Source of the DNA: Candidatus Woesearchaeota archaeon
GTDB lineage: Archaea; Nanobdellota; Nanobdellia; Woesearchaeales; GW2011-AR4
Assembly (NCBI GenBank): GCA_016784105.1
Contig: JADHVG010000001.1
Coordinates: forward strand, 16,238 to 48,237
Reading direction: 5' to 3'
Length of the DNA stretch: 32,000 bases
The translations under genes and the position numbers were made by a program. The notes beneath the pieces are model-generated. The model did no database searches and was not told the DNA's origin. It saw only the letters and a program-made list of their open reading frames with translations. Each line of letters opens with the position of its first letter. Position 1 is the stretch's first letter. This document shows, piece by piece, positions 2,443-30,863 of this stretch.

Positions 2443-3630
2443 TTAGGCCTTGACCTTGGCCTCTACTTTTAATCCAACAGTTTCTTGTAATTCTGAAACC
2501 TTATCAGTCTTTTCCCAAGTGAAATCAGGATCTTCTCTTCCAAAATGTCCGTAAGCAGCTGTCTTTTGAAAAATAGGCCTTTTAAGCTTCAATTGCTTTA
2601 CAATTGCCTTGGGTCTTAGATCAAATACTTTACCAACAGCATCAGCAATTTTTTCTTCATCTACATTTGATGTTCCAAAAGTCTCAATATTAACTGATGT
2701 GGGCTTAGAAATTCCGATTGAATAGCTTAGTTGAACTTCACACCTATCAGCTAGATCTGCTGCAACTATATTTTTCGCAACATAACGAGCCATGTAAGCA
2801 CCGGATCTATCAACTTTTGATGAATCCTTACCAGAGAAAGCTCCCCCACCATGTCTGCCCATTCCACCATAAGTATCAACAATAATTTTCCTTCCTGTTA
2901 AACCAGCATCTCCATGAGGTCCTCCAATAACAAACTTTCCAGTTGCATTGATGTGGATTCTCGCATCTTTATCTAGCCAATCTCCACAAACCTCATTAAT
3001 AACTTTTTCTTCGATTTCTTTCCTTAAGCCATCTTCAGAAACAGTATCAAGATGTTGTTGTGCTATAACAACTGCTGTGATTTTTTTTGGAACACCATCT
3101 TCATATCTTACAGAAACCTGAGATTTCCCATCGGGACCTAGGCCCTTAATAGCTCCACTTCTCCTTACTTCTGCTAACCTTAAAGTTAATTTATGAGCCA
3201 TAGTTATAGGAAACGGCATTAGTTCAGGAGTTTCTTTACATGCAAAACCAAACATCATTCCTTGGTCTCCAGCTCCCTGGTCTAGATCTTCTCCACTGCC
3301 TTCATCTACTCCTTGTGCAATATCCACTGATTGTTCGTGCAAAGCACTCCAAACACCACAATCTTCATGATGAAGACCAAATCTTGAATCAGTATAACCA
3401 ATTTTTTCTAAAGTTGCCCTAGCAATTTTTTGAATATCTACATAAGCTTTAGTTCTTGCTTCTCCTGCAACATGTACAGTTCCTGTTGTTGTTAATGTCT
3501 CCGCAGCACACCTTGACTCAGAATCTTGACGCAGCATCTCATCTAATATTGCATCAGAAACCTGGTCTGCTACCTTATCAGGATGTCCTTCCGTAACCGA
3601 TTCAGAAGTAAAATATTCTATTTTTGCCAT
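2443..3630 (-). CDS. metK: S-adenosylmethionine synthetase, bacterial/eukaryal MetK type
   Basis: Near full-length collinearity with E. coli MetK motifs: [58 protein letters not shown]. Start moved to ATG 3630 (MAKIEYF) because GAGGTGGT lies 7 nt upstream; the track start at 3642 is a GTG inside that SD. Confidence 0.95.
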
Positions 3631-3747
3631 TTTAATTACCACCTCAAATTTTGATTGTTTTTACATTATAATTCCATTTTCTTTTAAAAAGCTTCTTGTG
3701 TAGAATATTCCGAAAAGAATAAATAGGGATTGGGATTATTTTCTTAT

Positions 3748-12303: not shown

Positions 12304-13272
12304 ATGCAAGTCTTTAAGTTGCAGAAAAAGGGGTTTAATGAGTTTCTTGAAAAAGTAAGAAGTAGCTATGAACTCATAGCCCCAATAAAAGAAGATTTAG
12401 TTAAATTTGAAAAGATAAATAATGTAAAAGATATTCACTTGGAAAAGAATTCTTATTTCCCGGTAAAAGAATATTTTTTTAGAAAAGAAGAAACCTTGTT
12501 TCAATTTGACGGGAAGAAGTTTATAACTCCAAAACTTAAAACTCCTACAAGAGCATTCTTTGGATTAAGGAGATGTGATTTAGCTGGAATTCAACATCAA
12601 GACAAAGTTTTCATGGAAGATGTTAATGATCCTTATTATTTGGAAGCCAGAAAAAACAGTTTCTTGTTAGGTTATCATTGTCCTTCTGCACCATCCGAAT
12701 ACTGTTTCTGTGGGTCTATGAACCTTGAGGAGTTCTTCGACATCATGTTCTATGACCATGAAACATTCTTTCTAGCAGAAATAGGTTCTAAAAAAGGAGA
12801 ATTCTTAGTAAAAAAATTCTCAAAATACTTTTCTAAAACAAACGAGATAATCTCCGAGGTTGAAAAAACAATTCCTGGAACTGAAAGATTAGAGAAAAAA
12901 GATATCTCCAAGCTATATGATCATAAAGACTGGAAAAAAGGAGTAGATATCTGTTTGTCATGTACGGCATGTACGGCCTTATGTCCAACGTGCTACTGTT
13001 TTAGCATCCATGATGAAATTTCTATTAAAAACACAAAAGAAAGTGAAAGAAAAAGAAGCTGGAGTTCATGCCAAGTTCCCGAATTTACAAAAGTAGCTGG
13101 AGATCATGTCTTTAGACAGGAAAGAGAAGAAAGGTTCAAACACAGAATATACCATCAACTTGATTATTTCAAGGAAAAGTATAATGTGAATATGTGTACT
13201 GGCTGCGGAAGGTGTATAGAAGGATGTCCTACCAGAATAGATTTTGTCAAGATAATAAATGAAATGGAATAA
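12304..13272 (+). CDS. hydB: group 3b [NiFe]-hydrogenase (sulfhydrogenase) beta subunit, Fe-S protein
   Basis: Two ferredoxin-type clusters are present, CLSCTACTALCPTCYC and CTGCGRCIEGCP. The gene is first in a B-G-D-A order, as in Pyrococcus sulfhydrogenase. Confidence 0.85.
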   Translation: MQVFKLQKKGFNEFLEKVRSSYELIAPIKEDLVKFEKINNVKDIHLEKNSYFPVKEYFFRKEETLFQFDGKKFITPKLKTPTRAFFGLRRCDLAGIQHQDKVFMEDVNDPYYLEARKNSFLLGYHCPSAPSEYCFCGSMNLEEFFDIMFYDHETFFLAEIGSKKGEFLVKKFSKYFSKTNEIISEVEKTIPGTERLEKKDISKLYDHKDWKKGVDICLSCTACTALCPTCYCFSIHDEISIKNTKESERKRSWSSCQVPEFTKVAGDHVFRQEREERFKHRIYHQLDYFKEKYNVNMCTGCGRCIEGCPTRIDFVKIINEME

Positions 13273-13390
13273 AAAAAATATGAGAGTATCAGACAATAGA
13301 AGCACAGATTAATAACCAACAATTCAATGGACAGGCAACATAAAAACAATAAAAAAAAATTCAATATCAAAATATAAATAATAATTAAAA

Positions 13391-14197
13391 ATGGAAAGAC
13401 AAAAAACTTTTGAGAACCCTTACTTGCCTAAGCCCTACAAGGTTTTAAGCTTTACAAGAGAAAGCTCTGATAGCTTCACCATAAAAGTAGACATGAGGAT
13501 AAACCACGAACCTGGACAGTTTGTGCAAGTTTCTGTTCCGGGAATCGGAGAATGCCCGATTTCTATCTGTTCTGATTCCAACAAATACATTGAACTTAAC
13601 ATCCGAGAAGTTGGAAATGTAACAAATGCCCTATCTAAGTTGAAAAAAGGTAGTGTGGTGTTTGTCAGAGGTCCTTACGGTAACGGATATCCTATGCGGT
13701 CGTTAAGAGGCAATAATATCTTGATAATTGGAGGCGGATGCGGAGTTGCACCCCTAAGAGGAATCATAGAGTTTGTTGCAAATAACCGAGAAGACTATGA
13801 AGATGTTAATTTGTTCCTGGGCTATAGAAGTCCGGCAGACATGATATTCAAGAAAGAGACAAAAAAATGGAAGAAAGATTACCAGGTTGATGTTAGCGTT
13901 GATAAGGTTCCTCACGGACAGAGCTGTCATGATATGCGTGTTGGATTCATAACTGATGCACTAAAAGAAATGCACCTTGATAAAAATAATAGAGTTGTGT
14001 TTATCTGTGGACCTCCCATCATGATGAGATATGTGATTGAAATTCTTAAAAATAAAGGATTTAACGACAAACAAATATTCATAAGCGCAGAAAGGCTGAT
14101 GTATTGTGCATTAGGAGTTTGCTGCCACTGCATGATAAAAGGCAAATTTACCTGTATAGATGGTCCGGTTTTCAGATATGATGAGGTGCCAAAATGA
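13391..14197 (+). CDS. hydG: sulfhydrogenase gamma subunit, FAD/NAD(P)-binding with 2Fe-2S
   Basis: It has a ferredoxin-NADP-reductase-like fold (GQFVQVSVPGIGECPISI, IIGGGCGVAPL) and a C-terminal cluster CALGVCCHCMIKGKFTCIDGPVF. Confidence 0.88.
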   Translation: MERQKTFENPYLPKPYKVLSFTRESSDSFTIKVDMRINHEPGQFVQVSVPGIGECPISICSDSNKYIELNIREVGNVTNALSKLKKGSVVFVRGPYGNGYPMRSLRGNNILIIGGGCGVAPLRGIIEFVANNREDYEDVNLFLGYRSPADMIFKKETKKWKKDYQVDVSVDKVPHGQSCHDMRVGFITDALKEMHLDKNNRVVFICGPPIMMRYVIEILKNKGFNDKQIFISAERLMYCALGVCCHCMIKGKFTCIDGPVFRYDEVPK

Positions 14198-15006
14198 AGC
14201 TCAAAGTTGGGTTTTACGGCATCACTGGCTGTGCAGGCTGTTTACTTTCCGTGATATTCAATGAAGATGAAATTCTGGATCTGGTAGATTTAGTGGATCT
14301 AAAAGCATTCCCTTTCGTGAAAGAAGTAAACATAGATGAAAAGTTTGACTATGTTTTTATGGAAGGCCTAGTTGCTGATAACGATGACCTTAAAACGTTA
14401 AAGAAATTAAGAAAGAACTCAAAGTTTTTAGTTTCTTTAGGAGCTTGTGCATCCACCGGTTGTGTTCCTGCTTACCGACAGTATACATTAAAAGAAAATT
14501 ATGAACATCTGATATACAAAAAACAGAAAAGATTACAAGATCTGAAAGCAAGTCCGATTGATGATCATGTAAAAGTTGATTATTATATTCCTGGATGTCC
14601 ACCGGACAAAAAAGAAATCGTTAATTTTGTTAAAAACCTAGTTATAGGAAAAGAACCTAAACCTTTTGAAAGTCCTGTTTGCGTGGAGTGCAGACAAAAC
14701 GGAAATCAGTGTTTACTTGATTTAGGAAAACCATGTTTAGGCCCAATAACTGCAGGAGGATGTGATGCTGTTTGCATAAACGGAAAGTTTGAGTGTTGGG
14801 GATGTAGAGGGCCTACAAAAGACATGAATCTGGATTTAATGATAAAGATGTTACGTGATAGGGGTTTTGATGATAAGTTCATCCAAGACCGAATGCGAAC
14901 TTTTGTAGGATTAAAGATGCCGATGATAGAAGAATATATGTGCAGTACCGGAACCGCAAACAGATTAAAAACATCATTTAAAGGAAAAAAAGAATATTTT
15001 GAATAA
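14194..15006 (+). CDS. hydD: [NiFe]-hydrogenase small (delta) subunit
   Basis: The N-terminal motif is GITGCAGCLLS. Further Cys clusters are GACASTGC, PGCPP, CVECR and GGCDAVC. The ATGA start overlaps hydG. Confidence 0.88.
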   Translation: MKLKVGFYGITGCAGCLLSVIFNEDEILDLVDLVDLKAFPFVKEVNIDEKFDYVFMEGLVADNDDLKTLKKLRKNSKFLVSLGACASTGCVPAYRQYTLKENYEHLIYKKQKRLQDLKASPIDDHVKVDYYIPGCPPDKKEIVNFVKNLVIGKEPKPFESPVCVECRQNGNQCLLDLGKPCLGPITAGGCDAVCINGKFECWGCRGPTKDMNLDLMIKMLRDRGFDDKFIQDRMRTFVGLKMPMIEEYMCSTGTANRLKTSFKGKKEYFE

Positions 15007-15007
15007 G

Positions 15008-16282
15008 ATGAGCAAAACAATAACCTTAAACCACATAACCAAGATAGAAGGACACGCTTCTCTAAGCTTAGGAATAAAAAACGATAAAGTTACTAAATGT
15101 GAACTATCGGCAACGGAAGGAAGTAGGTATTTTGAAGGTATCGTGAAAGGACGTCGTTATTACGAAGCACACGAGATGACTTCTCGTATTTGTGGAGTAT
15201 GCAGTTGTGCGCACGTAGTTGCAGCAATTTCAGCTGTGGAAAATGCTTTTGGTTATAAACCAAGCAAACAAACAAAGCAACTTAGAGAATTAATGACATT
15301 AGGAGAAAGAATAAGGAGTCATGCAACTCATTTGTACTTTCTTGCATTGCCCGATTATGTAGGGTACGGTTCCGCATTAGCAATGGCCAAAAAATACCGG
15401 AAAGAGTTGCAGAATGCTCTTAATTTAATGAAGTGCGGGAATGGCATCATAAAATTACTTGGAGCTCGGGAGTTGCATCCAGTTTCTGCAACGGTTGGCG
15501 GTTGGCTCAAAATACCAAAAGAAAAAGAGATAGAAAATGTAAAGAAAACTCTTATTTCAGTAAGGGAAGATGCTCTCAAAACCTTTTCTTTATTTTCTTC
15601 CCTCAACTATCCTGAGTTTGAAACAGAAAGTGTTATGTTTTCTTTAGTTGATAAAAATAAATACTCAGTTTTGGATGGAACGTTTTCTTCTGGCAATATG
15701 AAAACTACAAAGAAAAAATATAGGGAACATATCAAAGAGTACCAAGTTCCACATTCAAATGCAAACTTTGTAACGTATGATAACTACCAGTATCAGGTTG
15801 GAGCTATGGCTCGTATAAATAATAACAAAAAACAATTGCACAATAAAGCAAAAAAACTTCTTAATAAGTCTAAAATAAAGTTTCCTTCAAAGAATCCTTA
15901 CACCAATAATTTTGCGCAGGCAGTTGAGTTGGTGCATTGCATCGAGGAGGCTATCAAGCTATGTGATTCATTAAATCTAAAAGAAGAGAAACTAGATAAA
16001 TTAAAAGTTAAAGCTGGAACCGGAATAGGATGCATAGAAGTTCCTAGAGGAACACTATGGCATGAATATACCCTAGATAAAAAAGGAATCATTACCAATG
16101 CGAACATAATAACTCCCACTGCACAAAACCTTTTCAGTGTTCAAGAAGACATAAAAGAACTTGTTCCTTCTATAATAAAGAAAAAGAAAAAAGACATAAT
16201 AATGGACATAGAAAAACTGATAAGGAGTTACGATCCATGTTTCTCATGTTCAGCACATTTTTTGGAGGTTAAATGGGTATGA
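15008..16282 (+). CDS. hydA: [NiFe]-hydrogenase large (alpha) subunit
   Basis: The Ni-binding motifs are RICGVCSCAH (N-terminal) and DPCFSCSAHF (C-terminal). A short FLEVKWV peptide after the His would be removed by the maturation protease. ATG 15008 is preferred over the TTG at 14999. Confidence 0.92.
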   Translation: MSKTITLNHITKIEGHASLSLGIKNDKVTKCELSATEGSRYFEGIVKGRRYYEAHEMTSRICGVCSCAHVVAAISAVENAFGYKPSKQTKQLRELMTLGERIRSHATHLYFLALPDYVGYGSALAMAKKYRKELQNALNLMKCGNGIIKLLGARELHPVSATVGGWLKIPKEKEIENVKKTLISVREDALKTFSLFSSLNYPEFETESVMFSLVDKNKYSVLDGTFSSGNMKTTKKKYREHIKEYQVPHSNANFVTYDNYQYQVGAMARINNNKKQLHNKAKKLLNKSKIKFPSKNPYTNNFAQAVELVHCIEEAIKLCDSLNLKEEKLDKLKVKAGTGIGCIEVPRGTLWHEYTLDKKGIITNANIITPTAQNLFSVQEDIKELVPSIIKKKKKDIIMDIEKLIRSYDPCFSCSAHFLEVKWV

Positions 16283-16419
16283 AAAACAAAAAAGGACATT
16301 TTGATCTTGCAACATTACTAATTGCAATAATTGGCGGAATTATTGCTTACATTACTGTTGAAAAGAAACTATGGAAATTGTTTGTTAAAGATGAGAAACC
16401 TATACGTGTTCGGAAATGA
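16279..16419 (+). CDS. candidate 46-aa single-TM micro-protein
   Basis: Below the track cutoff. GGAGGT (16265-16270) lies 8 nt before ATG 16279. The product is MKNKKGHFDLATLLIAIIGGIIAYITVEKKLWKLFVKDEKPIRVRK. It overlaps the hydA stop and 29 nt of the protease gene. Confidence 0.3.
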   Translation: MKNKKGHFDLATLLIAIIGGIIAYITVEKKLWKLFVKDEKPIRVRK

Positions 16420-16750
16420 GTTTTTAGAAGAAGATAGAAAAGCAAGAGAGCTTTCTTCTATGTTGGAAGGGTTTAATGTAGTACATTGTAGGAGCCCAGA
16501 TGAATTACTGGAATGTGAAGAGGATGAGATACTTATATTGGATGTTGTTTCCGGGATAAAAAAACCAATGATAATCACAGATATAGAACAGATAAAAACA
16601 ACCAAAATGTTAAGCTTACACGATTTTGATCTAGGATTTTTCCTAAAACTGATGAAAGAAATGGGAATGGACAAAAAGATTAAAATACTAGGAATTCCTC
16701 CATCAGGGGACTTAAAAAAGATAAAAGAAGAAATAAAGGTGATGACATGA
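16391..16750 (+). CDS. hydrogenase maturation endopeptidase (HycI/HoxW family)
   Basis: The motifs VFGNEFLEEDRKA, ILILDVV, SLHDFDL and IKILGIPP are collinear with the HycI motifs (GN..gDD, VDA, H, GIqP). Start set at ATG 16391 instead of TTG 16331. Confidence 0.75.
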   Translation: MRNLYVFGNEFLEEDRKARELSSMLEGFNVVHCRSPDELLECEEDEILILDVVSGIKKPMIITDIEQIKTTKMLSLHDFDLGFFLKLMKEMGMDKKIKILGIPPSGDLKKIKEEIKVMT

Positions 16751-17661
16751 ACAACAAAGGACTAATGCTAGTTTTCTTAACAGCTTTAATATCAGGATTT
16801 TCGATATTTATCAACGCATTTGGAGTCAAAGGTTTCGATTCATCCGTATTTACATTCTCTAAGAATATTGTGGTTGCTTTATTCTTGTTTTCTATCTTAA
16901 TGTTCTTTAACAAGTTTAATGAGTTAAGAAAATTAAGTTTAAAACAGTGGAAACAATTAATGTTTATTGGTCTAATAGGAGGTTCCATACCGTTCTTACT
17001 ATTCTTCAAAGGATTGCAAATGACAACAGGAACATCCTCCGCTTTTATACACAAAACATTGTTTATTTACGCTTCAGTATTTGCTTTATTGTTTTTGAAA
17101 GAAAAACTCAATAAGGGATTTATTCTGGGAGCAGGTTTATTGTTGATAGGGAATTACTTGATGTTAAAACCAAGTTTTGAATTTTCTTTTTGGCATGTGT
17201 TGGTGCTTGTTGCTACAATCTTCTGGGCAGCAGAAAATGCGATTTCTAAGAATGCTCTAAAAGAATTATCAGGAACTATCGTTGCTTTTGGAAGAATGTT
17301 CTTTGGTTCATTATTCATTTTAGTTTTCTTAATCTCAACAGGAAAATTCAGTTCAATATTTTCCATGTCTATTGAACAGTACGGATGGATACTGATAACA
17401 TCAGTATTCTTGCTAGGTTATGTTTTAACTTATTACAATGGGCTGAAAAGGGTTAAATTGAGTGTTGCAGCTCCTGTTTTAGCATTAGGAAGTCCAATAA
17501 CTACATTGTTAAATTTGGTGTATAAAGGGATTGCTTTGTCACTGAACCAATCACTAGGAATACTATTGATAATAGCTGGAATAATGTCAATAGTGTGGTT
17601 TGTTAAAGTATCAGAATTATTGAAGTATATGTTTAAAGTTGGTCAACATGGAAGGAGTTGA
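16747..17661 (+). CDS. EamA/DMT-superfamily transporter (10 TM)
   Basis: 304 aa with two similar five-helix halves, typical of EamA. The ATGA start overlaps the protease gene. Confidence 0.75.
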   Translation: MNNKGLMLVFLTALISGFSIFINAFGVKGFDSSVFTFSKNIVVALFLFSILMFFNKFNELRKLSLKQWKQLMFIGLIGGSIPFLLFFKGLQMTTGTSSAFIHKTLFIYASVFALLFLKEKLNKGFILGAGLLLIGNYLMLKPSFEFSFWHVLVLVATIFWAAENAISKNALKELSGTIVAFGRMFFGSLFILVFLISTGKFSSIFSMSIEQYGWILITSVFLLGYVLTYYNGLKRVKLSVAAPVLALGSPITTLLNLVYKGIALSLNQSLGILLIIAGIMSIVWFVKVSELLKYMFKVGQHGRS

Positions 17662-18361
17662 GTTATGTTCCAGGTTTTCATACATAACAAATTCTTTATG
17701 TTTTTGCGGCCCTAAAGATGCACATCTGGAATTCTTGAAATATCTTAATAGCAAAGAAGATAAAAGCAAAGTAGAAGAATTACTAAAGAAGTTTGAAGGA
17801 ATCTTACCCTATGTTTCTGTTATCGCTGAAAGGAATGGTAAAGAAATATTTGATAAAGAAGTTATTGAAGCTTACTGGTTGGGAAATAGTTTGTTAGATA
17901 ATCTTGATGATGAAGACAACAAAAAAATAATAGATAATTTAGTTTCTAGAGGACTTCTAAGATCAATAGGGGACAAGTTAATTTCTAACTTACCTTCAGG
18001 ATTATTACCTTGTCACTTATTCAATGTCATGTACGTCGGAGTTGGCATGCTTACCGGTTCTGTTGAAACTTCCTTGCACAACATGGACAATTGCAGAATT
18101 TCGTGGGGAAACGTAATAGAAGTTTTGGATGATAAACTAATAGTATCAACAAACAAACTAGTAAAAGAAAACGAAAAATATTTTCTAAAAAATGATGAAA
18201 CCAAAACAGTTGTCTACCTAAAAGAAATGTTGCCAGATATTTCTAAAGGAGATAACATAGCAATCCACTGGGGTTTTGCTTGCATTAAATTAAATGAAAC
18301 ACAGTTAGAGAATTTAAAGAAATATACTGGGAAAGTAATGGTCCGGTTGAATGGTCTTTAA
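17648..18361 (+). CDS. uncharacterised protein with Cys-rich N-terminal domain and HypC-like C-terminal domain
   Basis: The N-terminus carries ELCSRFSYITNSLCFCGP. The C-terminal part, NCRISWGNVIEVLDDKLIV...GDNIAIHWGFACIKLNETQLENLKKY, parallels the neighbouring HypC, MCLAVPGKIVEIEEDIAIV...GDYVILQGGIVVTKVDKKEAQEALKLY. The start overlaps the EamA gene by 14 nt. Confidence 0.7.
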   Translation: MEGVELCSRFSYITNSLCFCGPKDAHLEFLKYLNSKEDKSKVEELLKKFEGILPYVSVIAERNGKEIFDKEVIEAYWLGNSLLDNLDDEDNKKIIDNLVSRGLLRSIGDKLISNLPSGLLPCHLFNVMYVGVGMLTGSVETSLHNMDNCRISWGNVIEVLDDKLIVSTNKLVKENEKYFLKNDETKTVVYLKEMLPDISKGDNIAIHWGFACIKLNETQLENLKKYTGKVMVRLNGL

Positions 18362-18573
18362 TTATTTCCCAATGAACTTTTATACAACTTTAATGCTTCT
18401 TGTGCTTCTTTTTTATCAACTTTGGTAACTACAATTCCCCCTTGCAAGATTACATAATCTCCAACAGAATAATATTTTTCTAATAATTTTCCTTTTCTTT
18501 CTTCTAGATCATAATCAACAATAGCAATATCTTCTTCTATTTCTACTATCTTTCCTGGAACTGCTAAACACAT
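18358..18573 (-). CDS. hypC: hydrogenase maturation chaperone HypC/HupF
   Basis: It has the MCLAVPGKIVEI N-terminus with the essential Cys2, the GDYV motif, and is 71 aa. Confidence 0.92.
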   Translation of the reverse strand: MCLAVPGKIVEIEEDIAIVDYDLEERKGKLLEKYYSVGDYVILQGGIVVTKVDKKEAQEALKLYKSSLGNN

Positions 18574-18574
18574 C

Positions 18575-18898
18575 TTATCTTACCTTAACACTAACCAAGT
18601 TTATGTCTTTTCCTTCCAAAATATCCATGACATTACTCTTGCAGTTAGGACACTCAATAAGAAAACTATCGTGACCCCTCTCAAGAACTTTAGGATTTCC
18701 CGTGAAACCACACTCACACTTAACCTTAGATTTAAGCTCAGAATAATTTATCTTCCAGCTAACAAGTTCTTTCAAACAAGCAATAAGTTCCGGAGTAGGT
18801 AGGTGAGCTAGTTCGCCAACTTCCAGAGTTATCTCTTCTACTTCCCCCTGCGCTTTAGCAGCATCAATAATCTTTTCTGATATTATCGTCTCGTGCAT
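18575..18898 (-). CDS. hypA: hydrogenase nickel-incorporation protein HypA
   Basis: The N-terminus is MHE (Ni site). The zinc knuckle is CECGF...CPNCKS. 107 aa. Confidence 0.9.
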   Translation of the reverse strand: MHETIISEKIIDAAKAQGEVEEITLEVGELAHLPTPELIACLKELVSWKINYSELKSKVKCECGFTGNPKVLERGHDSFLIECPNCKSNVMDILEGKDINLVSVKVR

Positions 18899-18899
18899 T

Positions 18900-19100
18900 T
18901 TATTCTGAAAACATCACATACAAAGGCCTTATCATCGCTAAAACTCCAATCAAAAGGTACCAGTACCATTCCAAAGCAAGCAAATCACTCCAAATTTTTG
19001 CAAGAAACAAAACAAAACCTGCAACAGACAACTTAACAAAACCAATATCGTACCATTTCATTTTAGGAATCTTAGATTCCATCCAATTAAAAAGTCTCAT
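18900..19100 (-). CDS. small two-TM membrane protein, first gene of the hypA-hypC operon
   Basis: 66 aa. TGGTGAT lies 3 nt before the ATG, the same SD spacing as alaX and ftsZ. The stop is 1 nt from the hypA start. Trp/Tyr-rich hydrophobic segments. Confidence 0.6.
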   Translation of the reverse strand: MRLFNWMESKIPKMKWYDIGFVKLSVAGFVLFLAKIWSDLLALEWYWYLLIGVLAMIRPLYVMFSE

Positions 19101-29541: not shown

Positions 29542-30108
29542 TTATGCTTTGCCTTTACTTTCCCCCAACTCTATTCCGGCAGCAATAATATGGGAATACC
29601 TAATGGCTTCTGGGATGTTGCTTTTTGTACATACAATTTTAAGGATTTCTTTTGCTCTTTCCAAAGTAATTCCAGATAACTGGCAATATATTTTTCCAAC
29701 TTTTTCTATGTTTCCAGCACGTTCCAGTAATTTTATTTTATTTTTCTTATTTATTTTAATCAAAATTTCTCTTATTTTCTTTAAGTTAGGTTTCTTCCTT
29801 ATTATGATGATAACCGGGATCTTTGTTTTTTTGCTTAACTCTTTAATGTCAATGATGTTAAAACCACCAACAGCAATGCCATCCAATAAGATACCTTGAA
29901 GTTGAGGTTTAAAACGACACTTGTTTACCATCTCTGCAATTTTTTGAGTTGCGTTATTACCATCAACTCTTGCTTTAGTTGAAACAACACCATCTAAGGA
30001 ACAACCACCACGAAAAATAGAACCAACAATCAAAACATCGCCTTTCTTCTTAAACTTATGAGGAGCATCATCAATCCCAATAACACGAATCTCTTTTTTG
30101 ACCATCAT
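29542..30108 (-). CDS. DUF99/UPF0215 family protein
   Basis: [34 protein letters not shown] and [12 protein letters not shown] are collinear with archaeal UPF0215 proteins. The ATGA start overlaps the recombinase stop. Confidence 0.75.
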
Positions 30109-30863
30109 AACAGTTTTGCAAGGTTCTTTATATCTTTATTAGCAACATGAGTATAAATTTGAGTAGTCTTAAGATCTTTATGACCTAAAAGCTGCTGAAT
30201 ATATCTAATATCTGCACCATTTTCTAATAAATGAGTAGCAAAACTATGCCTTAAAGTGTGAGGCGTCACTTTTTTCTTAATTCCTGCTTTTTTAGCAGCA
30301 TTTTTAACAATCTCCTGGACTGACCTTTGAGAATATTTGGTTCCTCTTGATGATTTAAAGACAGAGTTTTGCATTGGCTTTATATCTTTTAACCTTTCAT
30401 GCAAAAAAATTATTCTGTCCTTACTTCCTTTTGTTTTTTTAAGGTGAATTATTTCCCTCCCATAATCAATATCTTCCAATCTTAAATTTATCAATTCATC
30501 CAGCCTCAACCCGGCATAATAAAGGAACATTATAACCTGCTTATGGTTTATATTAAATGTTAAATTAATCATTTTTTGAACCTCTTCTTTGCTTAAAACT
30601 ATCGGAAGCTTATGATGAGCTTTAGCCAAAGGAATTTTTTCTTTAAAACTTTTATTCAAAAATTCTTTATGATAAATTTGCAAAGCAAAATAAGAAGTTC
30701 TAACAGAAGACCTACTATTATCAGATTTTTTTAACAGAAACTCTTCAACACTTTTTTTAGATTTAAGAAAATTTGAAACAATATTCAGATATGATTTTAT
30801 TGTTTTTGGAGAATACCCCTTCAGTTTCAACAAACCCCCAAATCCTTCAATTGAACTTTCCAT
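30105..30863 (-). CDS. tyrosine recombinase/integrase (Xer-like, short form)
   Basis: The C-terminal catalytic region is [39 protein letters not shown] (R, H-x-x-R, H, Y). The N-terminal SAM-like domain contains [12 protein letters not shown]. Confidence 0.88.

Follow-up and report, generated by a model that had tools for sequence, protein, structure and literature searches.

The window analyzed here, a stretch of 32,000 nucleotides (positions 16,238 to 48,237 of contig JADHVG010000001.1, forward strand, from the Candidatus Woesearchaeota archaeon assembly GCA_016784105.1), carries on its plus strand the structural genes of a [NiFe] hydrogenase, followed by genes for a HycI-like maturation endopeptidase, an EamA-family permease, and a 237-residue protein of the Pfam family DUF6390 (PF19927), with hypC and hypA converging on the last of these from the minus strand (Table 1). 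The DUF6390 protein is our subject. Its last ~90 residues are a HypC-type oligonucleotide/oligosaccharide-binding (OB) fold homologous to HypC, preceded by a conserved helical domain, and its gene has, across many phyla and several hydrogenase groups, a near-universal place in [NiFe]-hydrogenase/hyp clusters. The window is archaeal by its marker proteins (S17e, S19e, L31e, and Rpb6), and the closest named relatives of the DUF6390 protein come from Woesearchaeota/Nanoarchaeota metagenome-assembled genomes (MAGs).

The ATG chosen as the start of the gene is the same call made by independent gene callers in four assemblies, and homologues uniformly start M-[DE]-G-x-E-L; an alternative TTG start is possible three codons upstream. 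Its first 14 nt are shared with the end of the EamA gene, and its stop overlaps that of the convergent hypC by 4 nt. A sequence-only reading of this locus had described the open reading frame (ORF) as we find it, had quoted its peptide strings correctly, and had rightly taken the convergent neighbor for a genuine HypC. It had also called the protein unrecognized, when it is already a full-length match to PF19927 (148.5 bits, E 3.1e-43, threshold 25 bits), with residues 2–233 covering profile positions 4–236 of 244; all 54 of 54 aligned relatives match the same profile. DUF6390 is a catalogued family without a described function. Two members bear the automatic Joint Genome Institute name "hydrogenase maturation factor"; a literature search found no paper naming DUF6390, searches on EamA with hydrogenase and HypC and on "HypC-like" returned nothing on it, and a paper on the Mycobacterium smegmatis Huc/Hhy hydrogenases makes no mention of it. 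With a profile of the N-terminal domain, 1.84 billion representatives yielded 939 clusters at 50% identity, of which 643 have E ≤ 1e-10; a relative is encoded in at least 536 scanned species genomes; and one mycobacterial member used as query retrieved 4615 clusters at 90% identity, with named species of Mycobacterium and Mycolicibacterium as the source of many. Nearly all of the best 150 representatives are 230–260 aa long and have the N-domain at their N-terminus.

The homology to HypC is visible at the profile or structure level only, and not in pairwise comparison. The resemblance to the neighboring HypC from which it had been proposed is not significant alone, as BLASTP of the C-terminal 93 aa against that protein gave no alignment at E ≤ 100. 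Against PF01455 the window protein scores 13.8 bits (E 0.066), below the 28.5-bit cutoff, and TIGR00074 gives no match to it; 38 of 54 relatives match PF01455 at E ≤ 1, likewise sub-threshold, the best with E 1.7e-5. When family residues 140–237 were aligned by hhalign with 36 neighboring HypCs, the probability was 96.3% (E 1.7e-9, 65 columns), with Cys149 placed on HypC Cys2 and His207 on the HypC His51 position, as against 0.1% for the N-domain used as a control. The best matches of the DUF6390 profile in the whole PDB are to T. kodakarensis HypC (E 0.001), in an alignment that sets "gdvvalHWgfacevL" opposite "GDWVIVHTGFAIEKL". The AlphaFold2 model of the window protein (predicted local distance difference test score [pLDDT] 97.1, predicted template modeling score [pTM] 0.93) builds the C-domain from five strands (152–215) and a C-terminal helix (217–235), all with pLDDT >95, and the top Foldseek matches of the full model in the PDB are HypC chains (2z1c_B, 3vyr_A, 3vyt_A, and 3vys_A; 23%–26% identity, target-normalized template modeling score 0.60–0.84). 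The proposal of a C-terminal HypC-like OB fold with an internal, invariant cysteine is borne out by these comparisons.

The homologous cysteine is residue 149, between a helix and strand 1, and not residue 2, and no member starting at the Cys149 equivalent was present among the best 150 representatives. DUF6390 lies outside the HypC family by the criteria of that family, its matches being sub-threshold, its N-terminal Cys absent, and a further domain present. In HypC, Cys2 ligates the Fe(CN)2CO iron together with HypD Cys41 (PMC11565642), and His51 adjoins Cys2 at the HypC–HypD interface (PMC9002611; PMC12134894). The HypC of the window has Gln at this "highly conserved" His51 position (ILQGG), and among the 82 HypCs that neighbor DUF6390 (window and loci L005–L174) only 20 have His51, with Gln in 36, Asp in 8, Asn in 7, and Ala in 5. 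His207 of DUF6390 is invariant while most of the neighboring HypCs are without His51.

The N-domain forms about ten helices in the AlphaFold2 model. Foldseek searches of the PDB found no relative of it, with no match within the full model and a best E of 2.8 when searched alone. Residue conservation was counted over 86 locus-derived DUF6390 sequences (Table 1); Tyr55 also belongs to the invariant residues of the N-domain, which is conserved at least as well as the C-domain and has more invariant positions. Of the cysteine set that the sequence-only reading had pointed to in this domain, Cys20 is conserved, while Cys7, Cys18, and Cys122 are not, the conserved residue beside the last being His123. 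Position 148, just before the HypC-like cysteine, is variable (N 24, A 24, S 14, R 11, K 5). The sole loss of Cys149 is in a Nanoarchaeia member (L020 9983–10714) with C20W, Y55S, and C149A together, at a locus where neither EamA nor hypC was detected; this copy may be decaying. A Woesearchaeota contig has a second, degenerate DUF6390 paralogue of 211 aa with a weak Pfam match (L005 10750–11385) directly after the full-length copy; it keeps Y55, D69, E74, Y76, W77, H123, and C149, and its C20 and H207-W208 regions are unaligned.

Co-evolution between the domains was assessed by mean-field direct coupling analysis (DCA) of 498 sequences (effective number, Meff, 347), in which the expected beta pairings K170–K181, S152–I206, and V188–I206 were recovered as a control. 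The strongest coupling overall is F10–A205, followed by F10/L6–I213 and Y12–F210, which puts helix 1 on strands 4–5 of the OB domain. N148 is coupled to G209, L124 to both M146 and A205, and the H123 region to residues 145–150, A205, and the C-terminal helix; C20–C149 ranks 184 and P22–V127 ranks 133. The two domains are predicted to form one compact unit, and the couplings suggest that the N-domain may occupy the surfaces that HypC shows to HypD. They also lend moderate support to a convergence of C20, H123, C149, and H207 at the domain interface.

We compared ~160 related loci, whose stop-to-stop ORFs were scored with jackhmmer profiles that had the window and annotated loci as seeds. The first set consists of genomes of 80 species (Nanoarchaeota/Woesearchaeota, Thermoplasmata, Micrarchaeia, Actinomycetota, Chloroflexota, Dormibacterota, Patescibacteria, and Bacillota), with the typical order HydB-HydG-small subunit (SSU)-large subunit (LSU)-(HycI or HypA-HypC)-EamA-DUF6390. 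EamA directly adjoins DUF6390 in 55 of the 61 adequately flanked loci of this set and is its conserved upstream partner. Of the 43 loci flanked by 7 kb or more on each side, 42 contain a hydrogenase or hyp gene (large subunit in 39), and a phylogenetic tie to [NiFe] hydrogenases is supported. Nearly always in the ~160 loci, the gene is found in [NiFe]-hydrogenase/hyp clusters, which belong to several hydrogenase groups, and most often it stands next to a transporter gene (EamA or a Nik-like ABC system), hypC, or hypD. The second set is a bacterial clade from soil metagenomes (80 loci) with the order SSU-LSU-HycI-(HypA-HypB)-HypC-DUF6390; among its 31 flanked loci, a SBP_bac_5 gene and two permease genes follow in 10, EamA is present in 8, and there is no transporter in 13. 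The ATP-binding cassette (ABC) components near DUF6390 score best against NikA/NikB-type NCBIfam models.

Other lineages vary the theme. An Armatimonadota MAG has the order HypC-ABC-DUF6390-HypA-HypB-...-3b hydrogenase; in a Ktedonobacteraceae cluster, five small ORFs separate the genes for a small subunit of 435 aa and a large subunit of 626 aa; and DUF6390 is also found in the cluster of a cytochrome-b-linked enzyme. Mycobacterium intracellulare, on a plasmid, and Mycolicibacterium, on the chromosome, have the order NifU/Rieske-NHL-HypF-HypC-HypC(long)-SIS-HypE-HypC-HypD-DUF6390-279/280-aa protein, and in Sulfobacillus acidophilus DSM 10332 (plasmid) it is HypF-C-D-E-TatA-DUF6390-(insertion sequence)-hydrogenase-...-HypA-HypB. 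Frequently, the gene is translationally coupled to that of a transporter, hypC, or hypD. The hydrogenases in question include 3b, cytochrome-b-linked group 1, 1h/1l-like, and other [NiFe] enzymes, a range that does not support the 3b-specific role first suggested for the protein.

A protein with a cyclic-nucleotide-binding domain is encoded in or beside 3b-type operons of Thermoplasmata (~29 loci) and one Armatimonadota MAG (L041 4048–4914; L094 10725–11213). The 279–280-aa mycobacterial protein (L175 14759–15601; L177 10753–11592) is soluble, has no Pfam match, overlaps the DUF6390 end by 4 nt, and holds the position that a transporter takes elsewhere. An HMA-domain P-type ATPase gene is convergent with DUF6390 in one locus (L114 9013–11472), and an Nramp gene lies upstream of an EamA–DUF6390 fusion in another (L091 8262–9512); both could be coincidence.

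In rare cases, DUF6390 also occurs joined to other proteins. An EamA-linker-DUF6390 fusion of 563 aa, next to a [NiFe] hydrogenase, is present in an NCBI MAG and, independently, in a Logan assembly. PadR–DUF6390 fusions were found in eight contigs, upstream of a Nik-like ABC system, and an XRE–DUF6390 fusion has hypC on one side and a Nik-like ABC system on the other, next to a large subunit of 640 aa. Fusions to such helix-turn-helix (HTH) domains are rare, at three of the best 150 representatives, and the closest relatives of the XRE fusion (P0212) are all stand-alone. Two further long "fusions" were set aside: P0221 (401 aa) and P0232 (414 aa) have tails rich in Arg, Pro, and Ala and are products of a frameshift or of translation in the wrong frame. 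Between the PadR–DUF6390 and Nik-like ABC genes lies a gene for a 394-aa protein with no Pfam or NCBIfam match (L088 2466–3650).

In the window itself (Table 1), the DUF6390 gene closes the plus-strand run; the earlier statement that it ends the hydrogenase operon has to be qualified, since the protease and EamA genes separate it from the structural hydrogenase genes. The hydrogenase is group 3b-like as judged by subunit composition, and its large subunit carries its own C-terminal extension for the protease. The matches of the HycI-like protein are both weak, and its start is that of the gene caller, a longer TTG ORF beginning at 16331. No hypD, hypE, or hypF was found within the window. One nucleotide past hypA, on the same strand, is a 66-aa ORF with two hydrophobic stretches and no Pfam match, which is not called as a gene in matching assemblies.

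Farther away, the window encodes a S-adenosylmethionine synthetase of the MetK type, which is the bacterial/eukaryotic form and not the usual archaeal one. No Pfam match at E ≤ 0.001 was obtained for three sizeable ORFs (194, 580, and 435 aa); for the last, the gene caller gives 390 aa, also without a match. An endonuclease dU gene stands beside a tyrosine recombinase (phage-integrase family) gene near the window end; integrases are also found near DUF6390 in L007 and L091.

Table 1. Features of the window and conserved residues of its DUF6390 protein (positions are those of the window; conservation is over locus-derived sequences)
Feature	Position	Strand	Remarks
DUF6390 gene	17648–18361	+	237 aa and stop; ATG 17648, stop 18359–18361
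N-terminal all-helical domain	17648–18091	+	residues 1–148
HypC-like OB-fold domain	18092–18358	+	residues 149–237
N15			conserved 83/84
C20	17705–17707	+	conserved 83/84
D69, E74, Y76, W77			conserved 85/85
H123	18014–18016	+	conserved 85/85
C149	18092–18094	+	codon tgc; counterpart of HypC Cys2; conserved 85/86
H207	18266–18268	+	codon cac; HypC His51 position; conserved 83/83
H207-W208	18266–18271	+	W208 conserved 83/83
[NiFe] hydrogenase, four subunits	12304–16282	+	
Hydrogenase iron-sulfur (FeS) subunit	12304–13272	+	Pfam Fer4_22
Hydrogenase NAD/FAD subunit	13391–14197	+	Pfam NAD_binding_1 and DHODB_Fe-S_bind
Hydrogenase small subunit	14194–15006	+	Pfam Oxidored_q6
Hydrogenase large subunit	15008–16282	+	Pfam NiFeSe_Hases
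HycI-like hydrogenase maturation endopeptidase gene	16391–16750	+	PF01750 E 2.3e-5; NF045519 E 2e-7
EamA/drug/metabolite transporter (DMT)-family permease gene	16747–17661	+	10 transmembrane segments; PF00892 E 7e-34
Canonical HypC gene	18358–18573	-	71 aa, Met-Cys start; PF01455 E 3.4e-16; TIGR00074 above cutoff
HypA nickel metallochaperone gene	18575–18898	-	PF01155 E 1.1e-10
66-aa ORF	18900–19100	-	
ORF, 194 aa	66–650	+	
ORF, 580 aa	647–2389	-	
S-adenosylmethionine synthetase gene	2443–3642	-	PF00438/PF02772/PF02773
ORF, 435 aa	8397–9704	-	
Endonuclease dU and tyrosine recombinase genes	29542–30863	-	

The maturation of [NiFe] hydrogenases is usually described as complete with HypA–F and a protease (plus HypX in air). 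We think it very probable that DUF6390 has a role in this process, and rather probable that its conserved Cys and His residues form a metal site. The protein would be an accessory maturation factor made of a HypC-derived OB domain and a helical domain not described before. Cys149 and His207 would be covered in cis by the N-domain, which would contribute Cys20 and His123, and the closed 2Cys/2His site so formed at the domain interface would be a single-chain counterpart of the HypC–HypD site. DUF6390 would take up or sense the hydrogenase metal and hand either metal or a signal to the Hyp machinery. Its partner in most lineages would be a co-translated membrane transporter (EamA in the window, a Nik-like ABC system elsewhere), and where the module is fused to PadR or XRE DNA-binding domains, it may act as the sensor of a regulator. 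Metal binding, the identity of the metal, and the direction of the hand-off are what we infer here, and the combined model, with a Cys/His metal site between the domains serving metal supply or sensing for hydrogenase maturation, is put forward tentatively, as somewhat short of probable.

For the metal itself, both nickel and iron are possible, nickel being somewhat more likely than iron. Nickel is favored because of the Nik-like ABC systems, the HypA/HypB neighbors, and the HTH fusions, which recall nickel-responsive control; the EamA-family protein CntI, which moves a Ni/Zn metallophore (PMC5719457), provides a precedent. Iron is favored because of the HypC ancestry, the adjacency to hypD in mycobacteria, and the iron source for HypCD, which one abstract states to be unresolved (PMC10847431).

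A number of observations weigh against the combined model. The putative convergence of C20, H123, C149, and H207 is drawn from DCA links between their neighborhoods that rank ~130–260 of 27,000 pairs, at modest depth, and zinc in a structural role could account for a 2Cys/2His site. The EamA partner has conserved polar residues (S16, N23, N40, E119, E163, K168, and R183), whereas no Cys or His is conserved within its membrane segments, and no DMT-family protein is known to import nickel. The Nik-like binding proteins fall below the NCBIfam cutoffs, with peptides or opines as possible cargo. There is no transporter beside DUF6390 in the 13 soil-clade loci mentioned above, nor in mycobacteria, where the gene overlaps the hypD end and the soluble 279–280-aa protein lies downstream, and in Sulfobacillus it comes after tatA. 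Finally, a few members are found away from hydrogenases, such as L007 by an integrase and L076 between ftsH and murJ.

Part of the same evidence can be read as pointing to the iron side alone, with DUF6390 as a HypC paralogue that acts together with HypD/HypC and has Cys149/His207 as its carrier site for Fe or the Fe(CN)2CO precursor; as a variant, it might be the Fe(II) donor of the HypCD scaffold or make up for the His function lost by the neighboring HypCs. The C-domain keeps exactly both HypC residues implicated in iron binding, and His51, present in 20 of 82 neighboring HypCs, always has its counterpart in DUF6390. The overlap with the hypD end in mycobacteria, the position of hypC immediately upstream in the bacterial clade, and the statement that the HypCD iron source is unresolved (PMC10847431) fit as well. 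However, a cysteine that is not N-terminal cannot reach into HypD or into the large subunit in the way modeled for HypC (PMC11565642), the HypD-facing OB surfaces (beta4–beta5, the C-terminal helix, and residues 146–150) co-evolve with the protein's own N-domain, and it would be left unexplained why DUF6390 is linked to Nik-like ABC systems, HypA, and HypB and is fused to regulators. We consider this reading unlikely. Less likely still would be a pure sensor or regulator, in which a metal or small ligand would gate the transporter or, with an HTH domain, transcription, and nothing would be delivered to the hydrogenase. The module does occur stand-alone beside transporters, on a transporter C-terminus, and on PadR/XRE domains, and such a distribution is typical of sensory domains, as with the TOBE/Mop OB domains of molybdate systems. 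Yet the HTH fusions are few and P0212 has stand-alone closest relatives, many members are without a nearby transporter, and the domain descends from a maturation chaperone.

The sequence-only reading had suggested a pro-form of HypC, whose N-domain would be a propeptide cut off before Cys149 to leave an N-terminal Cys. Such processing would make sense of the alignment of Cys149 with Cys2 and of the HycI-like protease gene in the cluster, but we find it very improbable: residue 148 (N/A/S/R/K) offers no conserved intein-like Asn or protease site before the Cys, invariant positions are more numerous in the N-domain than in the C-domain, the model is compact and the domains co-evolve at their interface, canonical HypC is encoded alongside in most loci, and the large subunit of the window has its own extension for the protease. 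Intein-like Asn cyclization at Asn148-Cys149 is ruled out by the same variability. Equally improbable is that DUF6390 has nothing to do with hydrogenases and is a generic partner of EamA transporters that lies near hydrogenase genes by chance. The settings of L007 and L076 would suit this, but the association spans Archaea and at least seven bacterial phyla and different hydrogenase groups, it persists where EamA is absent, and the C-domain is homologous to HypC. A replacement of HypD or HypC by DUF6390 was also considered and is ruled out, as HypC is adjacent in most loci and mycobacteria have a full hypF-C-E-C-D set ahead of DUF6390. Overall, the observation made in the sequence-only reading is confirmed, and its interpretation is partly supported.

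DUF6390 reuses the HypC fold against the rule that the cysteine must be N-terminal and adds to it a helical domain without a known structural relative, and it does so inside the hyp clusters of at least several hundred species. Its hosts include DPANN archaea, Thermoplasmata, many cultured mycobacteria, and, in soil, scavengers of atmospheric H2 among the Chloroflexota, Actinomycetota, and Dormibacterota. If the protein handles nickel or iron, this bears on the source of the cofactor metals and on how small-genome or oligotrophic organisms secure them. In its boldest form, which we regard as doubtful, the proposal would add DUF6390 to the Hyp-type factors as a widespread seventh one, which would mimic the HypC–HypD site in a single chain and receive nickel or a nickel chelate directly from a dedicated importer, the EamA/DMT partner would be the first nickel uptake system of its superfamily, and the PadR/XRE fusions would be new nickel-responsive regulators of hydrogenase and nik genes. 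Cultured hosts exist (Mycobacterium/Mycolicibacterium and Sulfobacillus acidophilus DSM 10332), which makes the function directly testable.

Among known systems, an extra HypC-derived accessory protein in a hydrogenase cluster, besides HypC, is also found in Rhizobium leguminosarum as HupF (PMC3534401). It is the nearest described analogue of DUF6390 in this respect, with a different architecture. In HupF, the Cys is reportedly still N-terminal and the extension lies at the C-terminus, where DUF6390 instead has an N-terminal domain and an internal Cys. The mycobacterial clusters that contain DUF6390 encode another long protein (236–241 aa; WP_069954230.1; L175 10106–10816 and L177 6024–6749), named as "HypC/HybG/HupF family," with a C-terminal HypC-like domain at 187–235. 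Like DUF6390, it has an internal Cys ("CVTCSDEG") and a His ("LVHAGMAI"); unlike it, it has an unrelated N-terminus of ~180 aa with no Pfam or DUF6390 match, and it is a separate family. Because this second, unrelated long HypC-like protein occurs in the same clusters, internal-Cys HypC domains may be a broader overlooked theme. With regard to function only, and with no kinship of sequence or fold claimed, DUF6390 also recalls TOBE/Mop modules and NikR-type sensors, being likewise found stand-alone, fused to a transporter, and fused to DNA-binding domains.

The closest comparison is with HypC/HybG/HupF (PF01455, TIGR00074) and its HypD complex. Both families have an OB-fold beta-barrel with a helix after it at the C-terminus, a Cys where strand 1 begins, a His in a "V-H-x-G-F-A" strand, and a gene in the hyp cluster. 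Unlike HypC, DUF6390 has its Cys at residue 149 instead of residue 2 and carries a conserved helical domain of 148 residues, predicted to pack on the HypD-binding face; and unlike a replacement of HypC, it co-occurs with the canonical protein. Nor is its N-domain a HypD, as it is without structural similarity to HypD or any PDB entry and has no [4Fe-4S] motifs, and in mycobacteria HypD is still encoded beside it. In the HypC–HypD scaffold, the metal site is built from HypC Cys2 (and His51) and a Cys of a second polypeptide, and DUF6390 would appear to recreate such a site within one chain.

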